A stretch of DNA of 32,457 nt, taken from UHGV virus genome UHGV-0096747. The stretch is one strand, 5' to 3'. Made by a program: the position numbers and the translations under genes. The notes under the pieces are model-generated. The model had not been told where the DNA came from, searched no databases, and saw nothing but the letters and a program-made list of their open reading frames with translations. Positions 5,685-20,232 of the stretch are shown one piece after another (position 1 is the first letter of the stretch; every line of letters starts with the position of its first letter). Origin of the DNA: a virus.

Positions 5685-6875
5685 TTAATTGCTGTTAACC
5701 GAGGTGACCAGATTTGCCAGATATTTATCGGTGATACGCTGGCGCAGGGTCAGGTTTTCGAGAGGAGGCACCGGGGTATAGTCGTAGTCGATATACAGTT
5801 TTCCGGCCTTGAGGGTTTCCGCATCGTTGGATTCTTCGCTGAACCAGCAGGTCGCATCCACGATATAGCCGTTTGTTTTCAGCTCACGGAATTTGGCATT
5901 GATGCCGTCAACGATGTCGCGAATCAGCGTTGCAGTGATGGGCTTGTCCACCGCCCACATGTGCGCCTCAGCCATCGTGTCGGCCAGCACCTGCGCGGTG
6001 CGGGTGTAGTTTTCAAAGAGGAACAGCGGGTCATCAGAGCAGGTACGGTTACCCCAGAAGCGGAAACCGTCACGGCGAATCAGCGTTGTGACACCTGACT
6101 CGTTCAACAGGTCAGCATCGGTGCCGGACTCCTGCAAATCCCAGAATACAGAGGCACTGATGCCGGTAACGCCGTTTACCCCGACGTTGGACAGCGTTTT
6201 ATGCCAGCCCTGCTCCTGGTCGATTTTAGCGCGCAGACCCAGCGCACGGGCGGTGGCATACGCGGTGGCGGTGGTGCTGCTGACCGTATCCCATGCGAGG
6301 AAATCCGGCCAGATGACCATCAGCTCACGCTGGCTGAAATTCTGGCGGTAGGCTTTCACCTCGGAAATGGTTTTACAGCCCCATGCGCTGATATACCCGA
6401 AAGCGCGCAGCTTCTGACAGACGGATACCAGTGCAACAGCCACCTCTTTGGTGTCCAGTCCCGGCACACCGAGAATACGCGGTTTAACACCGGTTACCGA
6501 CTCCGCCGCCAGCAGGGCTTTCAGTCCGGTGTACTGACCGTTTTCGTCGGTGGTGCCGATGATATTGGAAACGGTCTGCGCGAGTTTCGTTTCTTCGTCT
6601 TCGCCGGTGCCGTCTTCCACACGCACGACAACGGTGACCGGTTTTGACTGGTCGGCGATGGCCTGCAACGATGCCGCCAGCGTGCCTTTTTTACCGGCCT
6701 TCGCAATTGCGCTCTGCACATTGGTAATCAGCACCGGTTTATTGAGGGGGAAGGTTTCCGCATCCGCATCGCTGGCCGTGCAGACCATGCCGACAATGGC
6801 CGTGGATACGGTGGAAATGACGCGGGTGCCGTCGTTAATCTCCAGCACCTGCACGCCATGATGATAGTCACTCAT
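5685..6875 (-). CDS. FI: Tail sheath protein FI
   Basis: 396 aa as in P2 gpFI; position. Confidence 0.9.
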   Translation of the reverse strand: MSDYHHGVQVLEINDGTRVISTVSTAIVGMVCTASDADAETFPLNKPVLITNVQSAIAKAGKKGTLAASLQAIADQSKPVTVVVRVEDGTGEDEETKLAQTVSNIIGTTDENGQYTGLKALLAAESVTGVKPRILGVPGLDTKEVAVALVSVCQKLRAFGYISAWGCKTISEVKAYRQNFSQRELMVIWPDFLAWDTVSSTTATAYATARALGLRAKIDQEQGWHKTLSNVGVNGVTGISASVFWDLQESGTDADLLNESGVTTLIRRDGFRFWGNRTCSDDPLFLFENYTRTAQVLADTMAEAHMWAVDKPITATLIRDIVDGINAKFRELKTNGYIVDATCWFSEESNDAETLKAGKLYIDYDYTPVPPLENLTLRQRITDKYLANLVTSVNSN

Positions 6876-7052
6876 CCGTTTAACTCCGTGGTTAATGGGT
6901 GCAACTATTTTCTGTTGGGCAGTGCATGAGACGCTATTTGACCTGGCTGGTCAGTGGATGAAACAACAGATAAAGAAAAGGCGGGCAATCAGCTTGCCTG
7001 CCTTGATTTGTACTCTCTCTGTTTCCAACTGACAAATTACGTAACCAAAATT

Positions 7053-7068
7053 CTGTCAAATCTGACAG
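7053..7068. terminator. Possible weak bidirectional terminator hairpin between the cargo gene and FI
   Basis: CTGTCA-AATC-TGACAG perfect 6-bp dyad flanked by 4-T runs on both strands, 68 nt downstream of the 7136..7828 ORF. Confidence 0.3.
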
Positions 7069-7135
7069 CCTGTTTTGAGCGAAGAGCGGACCTGAGATTG
7101 TGGTATGCTAATTTATGGGGAGCAGGTCAATTGTA

Positions 7136-7828
7136 TTAGTTATCTTTTTGCTTTTCTTTATCCCATTTCTTTGCAGTGGTCTGATACCACTCTTCACGTG
7201 CTCGTTGTTCCTCGGCTCTGTCACTTGAATTATAGTTGTCTGTTTTAATTTTTTTGCTTCCCTGGGAAATCGGCCTCCAGTCTTCTCTAATCTTTTTCAT
7301 CTGCTCAGCTATCTGTGTCATTGGACTCCTTGCACCTAAGTAGCTAACCCCCTCGAAAGAAGCCATATCATAAGAATACTCATTCCGCTCTCTTTCAGTT
7401 GAGCCCGGCTGTTTAGACCAGCTAATACTAACAGAATAAACTTGATCTTTAATCTGGTCATACTTACAAAGACTGCTGTTAAGGGAATGGCCGTTTTTCA
7501 ATACGCTAACCTTGCTAAATGGTATACCTTCATTTTTTCTATGTTCTGCATTAACCAGTGGGGGATTAAATCCGACTTCAATATCATAGGCTGGGGCATT
7601 TCCGGTATTAGCAATATTGATATCAAAATAAAAAGCAGCCCAAGAATTTGGTTCAAGAGTCACAACGACATGAGGTTGAACTGATGCGTCAACCATCCTT
7701 TTTGTCTCGTCTGCTAATAGCCTTGTTACTCTCCACAAGAAAAATGTAGCAACTGCTGTTAGCAATGCTGCCAAAGCGGAGATAAGTGTACTTACTGTGT
7801 TTATATGCTCTGCGATAAATTCGATCAT
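7136..7828 (-). CDS. Hypothetical single-pass membrane protein, AT-rich cargo at the Z/fun position
   Basis: 230-aa ORF with ATG start and AAGGA Shine-Dalgarno 7 nt upstream; N-terminal hydrophobic helix (VSTLISALAALLTAVATFFLW) then a charged soluble domain; AT-rich unlike the flanking tail genes. Confidence 0.6.
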   Translation of the reverse strand: MIEFIAEHINTVSTLISALAALLTAVATFFLWRVTRLLADETKRMVDASVQPHVVVTLEPNSWAAFYFDINIANTGNAPAYDIEVGFNPPLVNAEHRKNEGIPFSKVSVLKNGHSLNSSLCKYDQIKDQVYSVSISWSKQPGSTERERNEYSYDMASFEGVSYLGARSPMTQIAEQMKKIREDWRPISQGSKKIKTDNYNSSDRAEEQRAREEWYQTTAKKWDKEKQKDN

Positions 7829-8319
7829 GAGTTGTCCTTGGGGGCGTACTAATTGTTTTCAATACTAAAATAGCGCCGGGCTTGAAAAATTGCACACTTA
7901 TGGTTCGATTTACCTCAACAGTTAAGGCTTCAACTTCCCCCATGCACCTCACCCAGCCCAAGACTGTATGAGGTCTGACAAAGAACTTCCTGACACTTGA
8001 AAACGAGGCAACGGCTAGGGTTTCTCGTAGGGCAAGGATTGAATACGAAGCCTGTATATTGCTCCGCGAACGCTGCTGAGGGCAGTTTAAATGTTGGGCG
8101 TTTATGTAGCCTTTCACTCACCAGCATGAGTTCAATGTCTGTGAGTTACCGACAACAATATAAAGGGGGTGGCATCATCATATATCCAAGCTAGAGTCAA
8201 ATCCTATAACTGGTTTTATGATCAGTGTCAATTGTTTGATTATTGAACGTTTACGAAGCAGCACGGGAGCCATATAACTAATGGGCAGGTATAAGCCTGT
8301 ATCACGAGGAATCAGTAAA

Positions 8320-8499
8320 ATGGCTGATGATAAGACCAAAATCGGTACCCCTGACAATGATTTAATAAGTATCAAACAGGATTACGAGAGACGTGATTGG
8401 GCTGAAAAGTTTGGAGTTAGCGAGGCCAAACTTGTTCAAGCCGTACAGGCTGTAGGTCATTCGGCTAAGAAAGTACAGGCATGGCTTAAAGACCATTAA
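8320..8499 (+). CDS. Small hypothetical protein (59 aa), resembles the DUF3606 family
   Basis: Internal ATG at 8320 with GAGGAA Shine-Dalgarno 8 nt upstream (the track ORF starts earlier at 8281); WAEKFGVSEAKLVQAVQAVGHSAKKV matches my memory of the DUF3606 pattern; followed by a terminator. Confidence 0.5.
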   Translation: MADDKTKIGTPDNDLISIKQDYERRDWAEKFGVSEAKLVQAVQAVGHSAKKVQAWLKDH

Positions 8500-8505
8500 T
8501 ATATG

Positions 8506-8528
8506 AGCGCCTTTCTAGGCGCTTTTTT
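8506..8528 (+). terminator. Rho-independent terminator between the two small cargo ORFs
   Basis: AGCGCC-TTTCTA-GGCGCT hairpin followed by TTTTTT. Confidence 0.5.
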
Positions 8529-8551
8529 CTTTGTCCTTTGGGAGATGATTT

Positions 8552-8830
8552 ATGGCTAATAATTTATTTATTACTTACGACCTCATTAAAACGAAAGATT
8601 ATGCGGCTGTGTATGATGCAATTAAATCTTTAGGAAATTGGGCTTTAACAACTGAATCGAACTGGTATGTTAACTGTAGTTACTCTGCCGAGGATGCAGC
8701 CAAAATTGTGAGGGCGGTCATGGATAGTGATGATAAGCTTATTGTTGTAGACGCAACCAATAACTCAGCTTATTGGTACAATCTCTCAGATGAAGTTAGT
8801 AACCAAATTCTGACTGAGTGGAACAAGTAA
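8552..8830 (+). CDS. Small hypothetical protein (92 aa)
   Basis: ATG with GGGAG Shine-Dalgarno upstream; AT-rich; alternating hydrophobic strand-like and helix-like segments (LFITYDL, KLIVVDA, AYWYNL); no family assigned. Confidence 0.5.
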   Translation: MANNLFITYDLIKTKDYAAVYDAIKSLGNWALTTESNWYVNCSYSAEDAAKIVRAVMDSDDKLIVVDATNNSAYWYNLSDEVSNQILTEWNK

Positions 8831-8856
8831 TTAAAGGGGGTGGGTACCCCCTTTAA
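8831..8856. terminator. Perfect 10-bp inverted repeat (TTAAAGGGGG / CCCCCTTTAA), likely bidirectional terminator closing the cargo island
   Basis: Palindrome with 6-nt loop immediately after the stop of the 92-aa ORF. Confidence 0.4.
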
Positions 8857-9049
8857 TTCAGAAACTATCATGATTGAAACATTAAATATACTGGGTTAAT
8901 TCTTTCATCCTTGCTCCCTTGCTATATGTCCTGAAAGCGTCCTTTTTAGCCTTCTGCTCAGTATGTCCGGTAATGGCACAGAGCGGACTGTCAGATTAGG
9001 CTTTACTCTGTGCCATAGATATGTAATCTCACACCAGAGCTTATACAAC

Positions 9050-9577
9050 TTATTGCGGCATTTCCGGCCATTCAGGATTTGCAGGATCCACACGACTGAC
9101 CAGAACGCTGTAGCGTTCCCAGATCTCCAGCCGTGTGCGCTCCTCATCTGTTGCCATGTTCAGTCTGACCGCGCGCTCCAGCGGCAAAATCACGGATTCA
9201 GCATCTGCTAGAAGTCTGGCTTTCCGATTTTCTGCCTGCTGCTGCAATTCCTCCGCCGTATAAATTCGTTTAATCACTGTGCCGTCCTTAAACATCCAGT
9301 TCCCTGAAATGTCCGCCCGTCGGTTAGCGGTAATATCCGGCACTTCAACAACACTTAATCCATCTGGTCTGATAGCTGTCACATCCTTTTCCACATAGCG
9401 GATAATATTATCTTTGTCGTACGCTATTTTTATCGTGTCATCAGCAAAATACTTTTGTTCTTCGTACCAGTTCTTACCATCTTCTGAAAAAAACCAGACA
9501 ACATCAAAACCCTTTGTCAATTGATATTGTTCAACCGTTTTTGGATTACCCGCCGTAATATTTTTTAAATGCTGCAT
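9050..9577 (-). CDS. G: Tail fibre assembly protein
   Basis: 175 aa as in P2 gpG; immediately downstream of the tail fibre gene. Confidence 0.88.
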
Positions 9578-9580
9578 AAA

Positions 9581-11578
9581 TTATACCTGTGCCACGTTAT
9601 ACCATGTCCCGTTAATGTATTTCTGAACCGGTCTGTAATATACGCCACCAATGTTATCGGCAGAGTTTGAGCCGGTATCCTGAACAATAATGCCGGAATA
9701 TATACACCCGGACGGTGCCTGATGTGTCCATGTCATGCCATTGTTCGCAGGTTTGTATGTGGCAGCACCACCAAGCCGGATATCCCGGACATAGCGGGAA
9801 TCAAAGTTACCGTAATCTGTGGGATTAACACGCCCCGTAATATTTATGGTTTTATTACTTTGAATGCTACCGGAGACAAAGCGCATAACATGGACGTTAT
9901 TAGCATAAACATCCAGATTACCGTCGCCATTTTGTTTAAAGCCCGTGTCATTATCACCCAAAACAATCGAGTTACCGCCAAGAGCACTGGATGTACCGAT
10001 GCCCAGTGCACCATTCAATTGACCTCCAGATAATGATAACGCCCCAACATCAGCAGCAGTCGGTTTAATGTGCGAACTGTAAATTACATATACAGTTCCA
10101 TCTGTCAGGCCTGTTGGTTTATTCGCTGTATAAGTTGGTGATGTATGAATCGTTACGCTGGCGTTACTGGTATAATCCCACTGAATATTAACACCTGTGG
10201 CGTAATTACCTATTTCAACATAAACATCATAGGTATCACCGGATGTATTCACCCATGCAAAATTAGTAAATCCAACCGATGTCCGTCGCCATAACGCACC
10301 AGTAAGACCTTTTGGATTTCCATTCCCCGCACGAAGAACAAGTTCAGATATACCAGCCTGCATAGGGGAGTTAACATTATATCCGGCACCACCAATCAGA
10401 CTTATGTAAACCACGGAACTGGCCTGTGGCATGGTTACAGTTGCCAGCCTGAACCATCCTGTACCACCACTAAAAGACATGGTTGTTGAATTTGTTGCTC
10501 CAATATTGCGCAGGAATAATCTTTTATCAGGAATATCCGCGCCATTTTGATCTTTCTGAAGACGTTTTTCAGCATTGTCATAGGCAGACTTCACCGCTTT
10601 TGGTGTTGCGGCCAGCGTTTCCGAATCACTGTTGGTGGCGCTACTGAGCTGAACAAGCCCTTTTCGCGCTGTGGTGGCATCCTGTGCAGTGTATTTCCCG
10701 TTAGCAAGGTCATACGCGACCTTTACCGCCTTTGGCGTTGCGGCCAGCGTTTCAGAATCGCTGTTGGTGGCGCTACTGAGCTGAACAAGGCCTTTTCGCG
10801 CTGTGGTGGCGTCCTGTGCGGTATATTTCCCGTTAGCAAGGTCATATGCTGCTTTTACCGCTTTTGGTGTTGCAGCGAGCGTTTCAGACGTGCTGTTGGT
10901 GGCACTACTGAGCTGGACAAGGCCTTTTCGTGCTGTGGTGGCGTCCTGTGCGGTATATTTCCCGTTAGCAAGGTCATATGCGGCCTTTACCGCCTTTGGC
11001 GTTGCAGCCAGTGTTTCAGACGTGCTGTTGGTCGCACTGCTTAACTGAGTAAAACCTTTTGCGGTCAGCGAGGCGTCCGGGTGACGTCGTGACTGTTCAT
11101 GTTCTGCAATTTTGTCATCAACGTAATCCTGCGTCGCCATCACCGTTGTGGTGTCAATGGTCAGCGCCACTGAGGTCACACTGCTGACGATGATGACCAT
11201 ACGGCAGGTCTGCGAACGCCCTGAGCCTTCGGCAAGAGCTGGCTTATAACTTTCGGCCATGTTCGCCACAGCAATTAACGTTCCCGCATCATCGTACAGG
11301 CCAAGCTCACGCATCCAGAAACCGCCCACCTCCGGCGGAATAACCAGCTCTGCGATAATATAATTACTGTTTCGTTTGTCCTGGCTGATTTTGTTCAGCG
11401 CATGTCGCCAGACTTCGTGGATAAGCCCGGTCTGTCCGGCATCCGGGACAGGCAATTTACCACCGCCATCCCCGACGGCCATCGTGGTAATGTTGACCTT
11501 CCGCCCTCCCGGTGCGGTTGCCGCTGCCAGCTTTGCTGCACCGGCAGTGGTGATAACGGTTCTGAATTTTGTGCTCAT
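9581..11578 (-). CDS. H: Tail fibre protein
   Basis: 665 aa (P2 gpH is about 669); position between I and G; contains internal tandem repeats. Confidence 0.88.
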   Translation of the reverse strand: MSTKFRTVITTAGAAKLAAATAPGGRKVNITTMAVGDGGGKLPVPDAGQTGLIHEVWRHALNKISQDKRNSNYIIAELVIPPEVGGFWMRELGLYDDAGTLIAVANMAESYKPALAEGSGRSQTCRMVIIVSSVTSVALTIDTTTVMATQDYVDDKIAEHEQSRRHPDASLTAKGFTQLSSATNSTSETLAATPKAVKAAYDLANGKYTAQDATTARKGLVQLSSATNSTSETLAATPKAVKAAYDLANGKYTAQDATTARKGLVQLSSATNSDSETLAATPKAVKVAYDLANGKYTAQDATTARKGLVQLSSATNSDSETLAATPKAVKSAYDNAEKRLQKDQNGADIPDKRLFLRNIGATNSTTMSFSGGTGWFRLATVTMPQASSVVYISLIGGAGYNVNSPMQAGISELVLRAGNGNPKGLTGALWRRTSVGFTNFAWVNTSGDTYDVYVEIGNYATGVNIQWDYTSNASVTIHTSPTYTANKPTGLTDGTVYVIYSSHIKPTAADVGALSLSGGQLNGALGIGTSSALGGNSIVLGDNDTGFKQNGDGNLDVYANNVHVMRFVSGSIQSNKTINITGRVNPTDYGNFDSRYVRDIRLGGAATYKPANNGMTWTHQAPSGCIYSGIIVQDTGSNSADNIGGVYYRPVQKYINGTWYNVAQV
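10565..11059 (-). repeat. About 3.7 tandem copies of a 132-bp (44-aa) unit inside the tail fibre gene
   Basis: Peptide unit KG(F/L)(T/V)QLSSATNS(T/D)SETLAATPKAVK(A/V/S)AYDLANGKYTAQDATTAR repeated; DNA period of 132 bp confirmed by identical strings at 10640 and 10772; boundaries derived from protein positions. Confidence 0.8.
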
Positions 11579-11588
11579 TATTCCTCAC

Positions 11589-12119
11589 TTATCCGGGGTA
11601 AACCGTAATTACATCGCCGTCGTAAGCCACACCACCGGCGAACAGGTAGCCGGGAATGTCCCGGGTAATGTTCAGGCCAATAAGGTGGCGGCTTGCAGGT
11701 TTGGCATCAGCAATCAGCCGTTCCATTTCCTGATACATTGCCTCTGTGATGCCGCTTTCCAGTACACCAATATCAAGCCGGAAGGTGCCAGGCGGGTCAC
11801 TGTTTTCCCACCACTCCGTCACGTTGATGAGATAGCCGAGCGGCTCCACCACACGCCGGATTGCACCTATTGTGCCTTTATGACAGTGGATGAAATACGC
11901 ATCGCGGATAACGGCGCGTTTTGTCGCTTCCGGCCACTTTTCATCCCACCTGTCGACCGAAAACGCCCACGCCAGCCACGGCAGCAGATTTGCCGGACAG
12001 GTGTCCGGGTTCCACAGCTCACGAATACTGACCGGCGTTTTTTCAATTTCCGCACAGGCTTTTGCGGCGGCGACCTCAAGCGGTGATGAGCCGGTCGGCA
12101 GCAGTCGCGAATCACTCAT
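11589..12119 (-). CDS. I: Baseplate assembly protein I
   Basis: 176 aa as in P2 gpI; position. Confidence 0.88.
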   Translation of the reverse strand: MSDSRLLPTGSSPLEVAAAKACAEIEKTPVSIRELWNPDTCPANLLPWLAWAFSVDRWDEKWPEATKRAVIRDAYFIHCHKGTIGAIRRVVEPLGYLINVTEWWENSDPPGTFRLDIGVLESGITEAMYQEMERLIADAKPASRHLIGLNITRDIPGYLFAGGVAYDGDVITVYPG

Positions 12120-13020
12120 CCGAGCCTCCGGTCACGACGCGGTATTCGGTACAGAAAGACGCCTGCGTACTGTTGAGCACGATGTCGGCCAGTGGTGCAG
12201 CCAGTTCGACACGCTGCACACCTTCCACATGCAAAGCGGCATAAATGGCAGACAGACGGATGTCGCGCCCCAGCCGGTGCTGTGCCGTGATATACGCTTC
12301 CAGCTTTTTCACAGCGGCAGCGCGGATGGGTTCGCTTTCGGGACCAGGGTAAAGGTAAAGCGTGGCGTTTATCTGGTATTCAACGATGGCGGCAGACTGC
12401 ACGGTCACGCGGTCGGCCACCGGCCTGACGTCCTCGCCATTAAGGGCGTTACGCACCACAGCCAGCAGGTCTTCGGATGCGACGCCGTTATTTTCACGTG
12501 ACAGCACAGAGATAGTGACGCAGGCCGGAGACGGACTGGTGACAGAGATATCCGCGACACGCCCGTCGGCACTGCGGCCATGATACTGATAGGCACCCAC
12601 CGACCCGGCGACGCTTAAACCTTCAAACGCCTGCTGAATACGCAGCCGATAATCGGTGTCAGATTCCATCACTGCCGGTGTCGGCGGAATGGTCGAATCA
12701 TCTGCCGGGGTGATAGTCAGGCGCGTGGTGTTGTAATTGGCACCAATCACATCAAGGTCATTACCGGCGGCACAGGCCAGCATCACCGCCCGTGCGGCCT
12801 CATTCACACGCTGACGCCAGATAAGCTCACGATAAGCATTTTCTTCCAGCAGTTTGACGAGAGACTCAGATTCCAGTGTCAGGGTACGGGCGACCGCCTC
12901 CTGCTGATCTTCCGGGTAAAGGGAAATCAGTGTCGCCTTGCGTTCAGCGAGAATGCTTTCAAAGTCCAGCTCCTCGACCACATCCGGTGCGGGTAGCTGG
13001 TTCAGGTCGATAATCGGCAT
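12112..13020 (-). CDS. J: Baseplate protein J
   Basis: 302 aa as in P2 gpJ; position. Confidence 0.88.
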   Translation of the reverse strand: MPIIDLNQLPAPDVVEELDFESILAERKATLISLYPEDQQEAVARTLTLESESLVKLLEENAYRELIWRQRVNEAARAVMLACAAGNDLDVIGANYNTTRLTITPADDSTIPPTPAVMESDTDYRLRIQQAFEGLSVAGSVGAYQYHGRSADGRVADISVTSPSPACVTISVLSRENNGVASEDLLAVVRNALNGEDVRPVADRVTVQSAAIVEYQINATLYLYPGPESEPIRAAAVKKLEAYITAQHRLGRDIRLSAIYAALHVEGVQRVELAAPLADIVLNSTQASFCTEYRVVTGGSDE

Positions 13021-19158: not shown

Positions 19159-20232
19159 TTACGCTCCCGGCTCTGCGGTCGCTTTAGCCAGTGTGGAGAA
19201 ATCACCGACCTTAATTTTTTCCACCAGACAACCGGCGGCGTAGTCTTCCACCACGTAATCAATGTTCATTGACTCGTAGTTCTCCACGCGGTCGAGTTTC
19301 GGGTTTTCCTCAATCACGCGGCGATGGCTGTCATCCATGTAGTAGATGGACAGGTTTTCCAGCTTCGTGATGAGCATCGCATCCGCCGGGAAGTACGGGA
19401 CGCGTACCGCCGGCAGGTTACCGATGCGTTTCTGGCTGATGATGACGTCAGCGGCCAGCATTTCGCTGTTGTCCTGCTCCTTGTTAACGATGGGGAAATA
19501 CTTGTCCGCCAGTAACTGACGCCCCACAATCACCACAAGGTCAGGGTCTTCCTGATACCACGGCTCAATCAGGTTGTTGGTCGCATCCATCACCAGTGCA
19601 TCAAGGCTGGCATAATCACCGCCCTTACCCACGCGGATAACCTCAGAGGTCGTGTGACCTTCCTCGTCAGTGACCTTGCTCATCACGCGCGCCGGGGCTT
19701 CATTGCGGTATTTCTGCAGCCAGCCGACCGCCACATCCTGCAGCATCGGATTGCTGCTGCGGTCAGAGGTTTCGGCACGCCTCACGCCGTTAAAACCGGC
19801 CATGATTAAATCAAGGGACTGGCGTTTGATAATGGCGTTACGGATACGGAGCTGGAAATCCTGATAACGCGCCCACAGGTCCAGCGTTTTGTAGCGGATA
19901 TAAAAATCGAAGTTAATCTGGTCGCATTCGTACTTGTTTGACGCCAGCTTCGAGAAGTCCTTCGGCTGACGCTCGGTACCACCGGCAGTGTCGGTAGTGC
20001 TGGCGATGGAGCCGGTGACACCGATACCAATTTTTTCCCCTTTCATTTCGCTGACCGGCACAATGTTGATGCGGGTCAGAAAGTCAGAGGACTCCTGCAT
20101 GGTGTTCATCAGGGTCTGGGTGACCGACGGTTCAACGGTGAATTTTTTCGACACATCACCGGCGTCGATGCCGTTCAGTTCGGCAACACGGGACAGGTAA
20201 GCATTAAATTTAAAGCGGGTTTCCTGGCGCAT
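19159..20232 (-). CDS. N: Major capsid protein
   Basis: 357 aa as in P2 gpN; position. Confidence 0.9.
   Translation of the reverse strand: MRQETRFKFNAYLSRVAELNGIDAGDVSKKFTVEPSVTQTLMNTMQESSDFLTRINIVPVSEMKGEKIGIGVTGSIASTTDTAGGTERQPKDFSKLASNKYECDQINFDFYIRYKTLDLWARYQDFQLRIRNAIIKRQSLDLIMAGFNGVRRAETSDRSSNPMLQDVAVGWLQKYRNEAPARVMSKVTDEEGHTTSEVIRVGKGGDYASLDALVMDATNNLIEPWYQEDPDLVVIVGRQLLADKYFPIVNKEQDNSEMLAADVIISQKRIGNLPAVRVPYFPADAMLITKLENLSIYYMDDSHRRVIEENPKLDRVENYESMNIDYVVEDYAAGCLVEKIKVGDFSTLAKATAEPGA

Follow-up and report, generated by a model that had tools for sequence, protein, structure and literature searches.

Whole-unit copy-number variation of the PF03406 repeat array in a P2 gpH-type tail-fibre gene

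Tail-fibre genes are said to be mosaics joined at shared motifs, a view reportedly held by Haggard-Ljungquist et al. in 1992 and by Sandmeier in 1994. PF03406 (Phage_fiber_2, or Pf2) is a fibre repeat that occurs in lambda Stf, P2 H, and Mu S. It was originally noticed in lambda Stf and its relatives, and its structure is little known (PMC3368898). Pf2 is also a domain of the collagen-like EPclP prophage fibres of EHEC, whose repetitive stalks differ in length between copies by whole multiples of the repeat period (PMC3368898). Phage Mu varies the distal part of its fibre by site-specific inversion, and a cryo-EM study of Mu gave an atomic model only for the N terminus of the fibre protein (PMC11915804). 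The mosaic view has been summarised for gpH of phage L-413C (PMC7460101). Our literature search found no paper on variation in PF03406 copy number in P2-like phages; a tandem repeat described in a Kayvirus paper was considered and is unrelated to the PF03406 array. Here, we used a computational approach to study such an array in the virus genome UHGV-0096747, of which we analysed a stretch of 32,457 nucleotides (hereafter the window), and to place it among its relatives.

The array lies within a minus-strand open reading frame of 665 residues, which the original prediction had called tail fibre gene H. This gene, carried by a P2-like prophage, is a P2 gpH-type tail fibre, and Pfam, nucleotide identity to P2-like phages, and gene order all bear out the name. 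Its first 151 residues match PF12571, the phage tail-collar fibre N-terminal domain, and four stretches behind them match PF03406, "Phage tail fibre repeat", with 264.1 bits against a cut-off of 22, the best of them covering profile positions 1 to 41/42. From gene nucleotide 1 to about 1050, the sequence is 94 to 99% identical to H of many P2-like phages from Escherichia and Yersinia, and the gene order matches the V-W-J-I-H-G ... FI order of annotated P2 (NC_001895), with H between I and G. The neighbouring cargo genes gave no match in PADLOC. The gene and its surroundings are as follows.

5685-6875: tail sheath gene (Pfam)
9050-9577, minus strand: tail-fibre assembly chaperone of the gpG type (Pfam PF02413, Caudo_TAP, E 1e-33), positioned as G is in P2
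9581-11578, minus strand: tail-fibre gene H of the P2 gpH type, 665 aa (open reading frame, PF12571 plus four PF03406 matches, nucleotide identity, gene order)
11126-11578, minus strand: N-terminal baseplate-attachment domain (aa 1-151; PF12571, E 2.8e-58; AF2 pLDDT 80-94)
11589-12119: Tail_P2_I (Pfam)
12112-13020: Baseplate_J (Pfam)

Three approaches agree on the extent and period of the array. Tandem Repeats Finder reports a 132-nt period in 3.5 copies at 10577-11038 (89% matches, no indels, score 693), one of only two rows that it returns across the 32-kb window; a repeat search recovers three in-register copies of 226 nt starting at 10571, 10703, and 10835, the other two being 88% and 84% identical to the first; and the protein contains PF03406 units spaced 44 aa apart behind its tail-collar fibre N-terminal domain, about 3.8 units in total, with the following limits.

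10946-11077, minus strand: repeat unit 0 (aa 168-211), in register, with six fixed differences from unit 1 across relatives
10814-10945, minus strand: repeat unit 1 (aa 212-255), in register
10682-10813, minus strand: repeat unit 2 (aa 256-299), with no fixed difference from unit 1 among 47 distinct four-copy alleles
10571-10681, minus strand: repeat unit 3, truncated (aa 300-336; HMM limits), diverging from the other units after ...AVKSAYD

The array is thus a real, non-random tandem repeat of a catalogued fibre repeat in a known gene family. The 44-aa unit and the roughly 3.7 tandem copies of the original prediction are borne out by these counts, and its interval of 10565-11059 is correct to about 20 nt (the HMM limits are 10571-11077). 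Its description of the copies as near-identical holds for the protein and fails for the DNA, as the three full units differ from one another at 16 to 27 of 132 nt (80 to 88% identity; 82 to 88% for adjacent full units), mostly at synonymous sites (pS 0.29 to 0.42 and pN/pS 0 to 0.34 for unit pairs), and the figure of one or two substitutions per copy was overstated, with 2 to 8 of 44 residues differing between full units. The longest exact in-register tract between adjacent units of the window is 50 nt. Because the units are not near-identical as DNA, the array is only a modest substrate for exchange and is not hypermutable.

The period of the repeat is mirrored on the opposite strand, where two open reading frames overlie the array.

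10547-11044, plus strand: spurious antisense ORF over the array, 165 aa, TTG start, with a marginal PHROG match (E 0.0075)
10803-11048, plus strand: second spurious antisense ORF, 81 aa, GTG start, without a Pfam match and with matches to PHROG families of unknown function

That these are genes in their own right, encoded antisense within H, has one point in its favour, the match of the 81-aa frame to phrog_26766 at E 2.3e-14, but phrog_26766 is itself a family of unknown function, and we consider the idea scarcely credible: the translation of the 165-aa frame is a periodic mirror of the repeat, rich in Cys, Arg, Phe, and Gly, the two frames begin with TTG and GTG, and the 81-aa frame matches nothing in Pfam. 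Most simply, the PHROG families matched collect equivalent antisense frames that were wrongly called as genes elsewhere among phages. The periodic plus-strand frames are accordingly by-products of the repeat, as had been proposed, and such artefacts seem to be the origin of some PHROG families of unknown function.

To see how the number of units varies, we compared the window with 80 loci from IMG/VR that match its N-terminal domain at 98% identity or more and with 26 other loci, one genome per species. When proteins were searched with the N-terminal domain alone, nearly all of those recovered were "partial", shorter than 300 aa, and ended inside the array; since truncated proteins are unusable for counting, loci were taken as DNA from IMG/VR and GTDB, and units were counted with an HMM trained on those of the window. 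The 80 close relatives carry two units in 9 cases, three in 2, four in 55, and five in 14, and the 26 one-per-species loci carry none in 1 case, one in 5, two in 11, three in 7, and four in 2. Copy number is therefore not invariant: it ranges from one to five over the 106 homologues, apart from one remote match with none, and phage P2 H has two. Unit starts are 44 aa apart in nearly all homologues, which indicates that units are gained and lost only as wholes, and all complete length variants remain in frame, the unit of 132 nt being 44 codons. The difference also appears between genes that share the sequence behind the array. When genes were grouped into distal-module classes by their post-array sequence, four classes held both four- and five-unit forms, of 772/816, 665/709, 749/793, and 657/701 aa, the gap within each class being exactly 44 aa; in the window's own class, 11 of the 13 members have five units. 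Complete Escherichia coli genomes contain the allele type ungapped at 1998 nt in at least 19 records and at 2130 nt in at least 2, one of which (E. coli 101EVA) was examined and has five units, and forms shorter by one or two units are present in complete E. coli genomes as well.

Such counts invite the suspicion that the differences, including the one-unit gap described below, are assembly artefacts, produced by collapse or expansion of the array in short-read assemblies. Many of the IMG/VR loci come from such assemblies, so that a single comparison of a four- with a five-unit gene could be an assembly error; the array is evidently a place where assemblies often break, as the partial proteins testify; copies of the repeat DNA lie at a median of 2 places in an E. 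coli genome, the maximum being 11; and an identical tract of 62 nt, like the one at the gap, could be skipped in a de Bruijn graph. Copy numbers of this array taken from short-read assemblies are for that reason not to be trusted. As an account of the variation itself, however, we find artefact improbable, since complete genomes carry the four-unit, the five-unit, and the one- and two-unit-shorter forms, the P2 reference record has two units, an independent contig repeats the window's four-unit array without a gap, and the units, being 12 to 20% apart, are resolvable by 150-nt reads.

The closest view of a single change in unit number comes from one IMG/VR locus, L003. Its H gene of 2130 nt aligns to the 1998-nt gene of the window with no mismatch and a single gap of 132 nt, the junction of which lies in the following tract.

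10680-10741, minus strand: 62-nt tract with the gap junction (window against the five-copy L003 gene), identical between the third and fourth units of L003

Removing 132 nt from L003 at any start within gene nucleotides 837 to 899 yields the window gene with no mismatches. The two loci are about 1% apart in their flanks, whereas the shared bases of the gene are identical, so the change in unit number is younger than any point substitution in the gene. As for its direction, the extra unit of L003 carries three variants absent from all units of the window, and two further loci (L001 and L002) have the identical unit, so that this unit is older than the split. This makes the five-unit form the older one and suggests that the change was a deletion. 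The window allele is thus most likely a one-unit deletion derivative of a five-unit allele. The four-unit state is not peculiar to one assembly, as an independent metagenome contig (L006) has the same four-unit array as the window, ungapped and 99.4% identical over 5.8 kb. Among all allele pairs compared, the window and L003 are the only clean, that is, mismatch-free, one-unit pair: the other pairs of four- and five-unit alleles differ at 25 to 83 further sites, and no clean-gap pair was found for 1/2, 2/3, 3/4, 2/4, or 3/5 units. Inferred deletion positions in these diverged arrays are consequently unreliable. A clean gap of exactly one unit, with its junction in a 62-nt identical tract, reads as the footprint of in-register recombination or slippage. 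Together with the whole-unit variation in copy number, it supports the original proposal that the repeats are substrates for slipped-strand or recombinational expansion and contraction.

Population data point the same way. Across the 47 distinct four-unit alleles that form our diversity set, nucleotide diversity is 0.018 in the adjoining N-terminal domain and 3 to 4 times as high, at 0.049 to 0.076, in the units, and the same pair of alleles segregates in at least two units at 29 of the 58 polymorphic unit positions. Units 1 and 2 have no fixed differences and are 99% identical in some genes. As many as 41 distinct arrays occur among the 55 four-unit arrays, and greedy clustering of the units at 95.5% identity gives 61 types; with units that are fine-scale mosaics, typing them in this way proved unworkable. 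As far as sequences can speak to it, polymorphism that is both raised and shared in this way is the mark of in-register exchange or conversion between units. In part, diversity and sharing will be inflated by the comparison of non-orthologous units after gains and losses, which is itself a product of the same process. Partners for exchange may also lie outside the gene: repeat DNA is found in 1812 of 5426 complete E. coli genomes, and the places where it occurs include lambdoid "prophage tail fiber N-terminal domain" genes with 84 to 91% nucleotide identity. Given this spread, other prophages are plausible recombination partners. Tracts of 50 to 60 nt are longer than the minimum that RecA needs to pair efficiently in E. 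coli. Exchange may have proceeded by unequal crossing-over dependent on RecA, by slipped misalignment independent of it, or by recombination with another prophage.

Where the array sits within the fibre is suggested by the sequence that follows it.

10499-10570, minus strand: linker and mosaic joint (aa 337-360, NAEKRLQKDQNGADIPDKRLFLRNIG), marked by loss of homology, a drop in G+C, and the linker shared with Mu S
9584-10498, minus strand: distal exchangeable module (aa 361-665), presumed receptor-binding, with G+C of 0.42 to 0.44 and shared by only a subset of relatives

Of 53 four-unit relatives, 52 cease to resemble the window at about gene nucleotides 1035 to 1080, within QNGADIPDKRLFLRNIG, and many matches to phages stop at nucleotide 1049 or 1056. 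G+C is about 0.55 over the N-terminal part and the array, drops to 0.43 at the joint, and is 0.42 to 0.44 over the distal part; both Mu S and a short tail fibre from the PDB are similar to the C-terminal tip. These breaks directly after the array, with the Mu S linker at the joint, indicate that the repeats belong to the conserved proximal shaft and that the distal, presumed receptor-binding module is swapped just beyond them; such a joint fits the mosaic view of tail-fibre genes given above. This distal module, swapped at the joint after the array, is where receptor specificity is expected to lie.

A joint so frequently used raises the question of whether units are gained and lost solely through the exchange of whole fibre modules between different phages, the repeats serving as homology linkers and undergoing no expansion or contraction within the gene. 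The loss of homology behind the array in 52 of 53 genes and the break in G+C at the same place are what such exchange would leave, the single repeat of Mu S followed by the same linker and the lambdoid genes 84 to 91% identical to the units show where it could occur, and the 41 distinct mosaics among the 55 four-unit arrays can be read in the same sense. We nevertheless regard exchange of modules as the sole source of variation as unlikely, because the window and L003 genes are identical on both sides of the gap, distal module included, so that nothing was swapped, and because four and five units are found together within one distal class four times over. The two routes are not exclusive: inter-phage exchange confined to the array may occur and would look like intragenic change.

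We therefore return to exchange in register. In the explanation that we think likely, the PF03406 array is the proximal shaft of gpH, from which whole units are gained and lost by in-register exchange, the window allele being one such deletion. Four in-register copies, three full and one truncated, would form the proximal shaft of a trimeric P2 gpH-type fibre, placed between the baseplate-binding N-terminal domain and the exchangeable distal module. Purifying selection would keep the protein sequence of the units while their DNA diverged, and the exact tracts of about 50 to 60 nt left between adjacent units would permit occasional in-register homologous exchange, either within one genome, by unequal crossing-over, slipped misalignment, or gene conversion, or alternatively between co-resident P2-like and lambdoid prophages. 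Each event would add or remove whole 44-residue units or shuffle variants among them, and the four-unit allele of the window would most likely have arisen from a five-unit allele by the loss of one unit. From the position of the repeats and the purifying selection on their residues, we infer that every unit adds a constant increment to the length of the shaft. An AF2 monomer model of aa 1-361, built from an alignment of 37 sequences, has pLDDT 80 to 94 in the N-terminal domain and below 50 over the array, and the sequence matches in the PDB (Mu S) establish no more than the existence of a homologous stretch.

The original prediction had further suggested that repeat number might vary fibre length or receptor-binding geometry and hence host range. 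One form of this idea would make unit number a length dial that changes the reach of the distal receptor-binding module and tunes adsorption to the depth of O-antigen or capsule. We hold this to be unlikely; were it true, one-unit changes such as that between the window and its five-unit twin would be selected host-range adaptations and not neutral slippage. A stronger form, in which the array is a programmed contingency locus and fibre length is switched frequently to vary host range, draws on the in-frame, whole-unit variation in an organelle of host recognition, yet strikes us as highly improbable. The units have diverged at synonymous sites (pS 0.29 to 0.42), and their exact tracts in the window do not exceed 50 nt; the commonest state among close relatives is four copies (55 of 80), which implies that turnover is not fast and speaks against rapid programmed switching; no dedicated recombinase signature accompanies the gene, the only nearby inverted repeat flanking the cargo island and not H; and receptor specificity is expected to map to the other, swappable part of the gene. 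Two related kinds of switching were also considered. On/off switching by repeat change is ruled out by the 132-nt unit of 44 codons and the intact frame of the complete variants. An invertible segment of the Mu G or P1 C type was rejected as well, because a single inverted repeat, of 33 nt and 73% complementary, was found between 6900 and 11700, and it lies outside H, on the flanks of the cargo island (7059-8997); Pfam detected no recombinase domain in the neighbouring ORFs scanned.

Set against the systems described to date, the repeat itself is familiar. Its four units match, from end to end, the PF03406 model (264 bits) that also covers lambda Stf, P2 H, and Mu S, and nothing substantive differs except their number, which is four in the window, two in P2 H, and one in the alignment of Mu S. 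P2 gpH (NC_001895) is about 94% identical in nucleotide sequence over the N-terminal domain and the first two units and shares the V-W-J-I-H-G order and the G-type chaperone, whereas the window has two more units and, from about aa 350 on, another distal module. Closer still is the five-unit H gene of L003, of the same distal class, which is identical at all 1998 shared bases and has the one 132-nt unit that the window has not; the H protein of E. coli 101EVA (WP_112897359.1, 709 aa) has the same architecture and neighbouring genes, with five units and 55 further positions that differ. Mu S (PDB 5yvq and 9ki1) has a single PF03406 unit followed by the same linker, '...RL.KD.NGADIP.K.LF..N.G', and a related C-terminal tip. 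The distal part of the fibre is variable both in the Mu G and P1 C fibres and in H of the window, but in contrast to Mu, no inverted repeat or invertase was found at the H gene, and variation takes the form of homologous exchange and changes in unit number. The EPclP fibres vary in Gly-X-Y and heptad repeats of 3 or 7 residues, whereas the window varies in PF03406 units of 44 residues. The repeat, the gene family, and the mosaicism of fibres were thus already known, and the understanding of tail-fibre mosaicism is unchanged. To this, the locus adds a clean example of the loss of a single unit and evidence from populations that the units of a fibre shaft exchange with one another. For those who engineer fibres, two to five shaft units occur in apparently intact H genes, which is useful to know, and the position just after the array, at ...NGADIPDK..., offers P2 gpH a natural fusion joint that has been used repeatedly in nature.

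The tail-fibre gene H is compositionally divided, with a sharp break in G+C content at about 10560-10600 that separates the proximal part, including the 44-amino-acid PF03406 repeats (0.53-0.56), from the distal part (0.42-0.44), and this break points to a foreign origin of the distal module. The repeat units themselves share 84-91% nucleotide identity with lambdoid genes annotated as "prophage tail fiber N-terminal domain-containing" in complete E. coli genomes (hits H70, H71 and H162-H167), from which we infer patches of fibre-gene homology between P2-like and lambdoid prophages that share one cell. Besides the H array, the only tandem repeat in the window is a 16-nt unit present in two copies at 19654-19685, with 87% matches.

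An open reading frame at 10803-11048 on the plus strand, antisense to the repeats, matches phrog_26766 (E value of 2.3e-14), phrog_24241 and phrog_10142, all three labelled as unknown function in PHROG, and these families may be made up of spurious antisense frames from tail-fibre repeats. When the N-terminal 167 amino acids of H were used to search the protein database, nearly all matches (P0001-P0120) were "partial" proteins of 90-293 amino acids, many of them terminating within the array; the array is routinely a break point for short-read assemblies. In two homologous loci from IMG/VR, L066 and L070, the H frame terminates just past the array, at 322 and 289 amino acids, respectively, and a pseudogene, a rearrangement, or an insertion at the mosaic joint between array and distal module could account for each short frame. 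Two further loci, L094 (Vagococcus sp. WN89Y, a Firmicute according to its record) and L099 (Chryseobacterium sp. 18061, labelled Bacteroidota), lie on long contigs of GTDB genomes and have a P2 H gene of the enterobacterial type, whose N-terminal domain shows 74-78% amino acid identity. This suggests that both assemblies are contaminated or mislabelled.

An AT-rich island (7000-9000; G+C content of 0.39-0.45) separates the fibre chaperone gene from the sheath gene and contains three open reading frames:

7136-7828, minus strand, 230-amino-acid protein matching phrog_11802 (PHROG label, unknown function)
8320-8499, plus strand, DUF3606 protein
8552-8830, plus strand, 92-amino-acid protein, phrog_1090

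Searches of Pfam and PADLOC with the 230-amino-acid protein returned no matches. The island is bracketed by the arms (7059-7091 and 8965-8997, 1873 nt apart) of an imperfect 33-nt inverted repeat, 73% complementary and with the ends AATCTGACAG and CTGTCAGATT, which could be due to chance or could be the trace of the route by which the cargo was inserted. This region is a variable cargo hotspot: the equivalent site is occupied by fun(Z) in P2 and by a HEPN-domain gene in the prophage of E. coli 101EVA.
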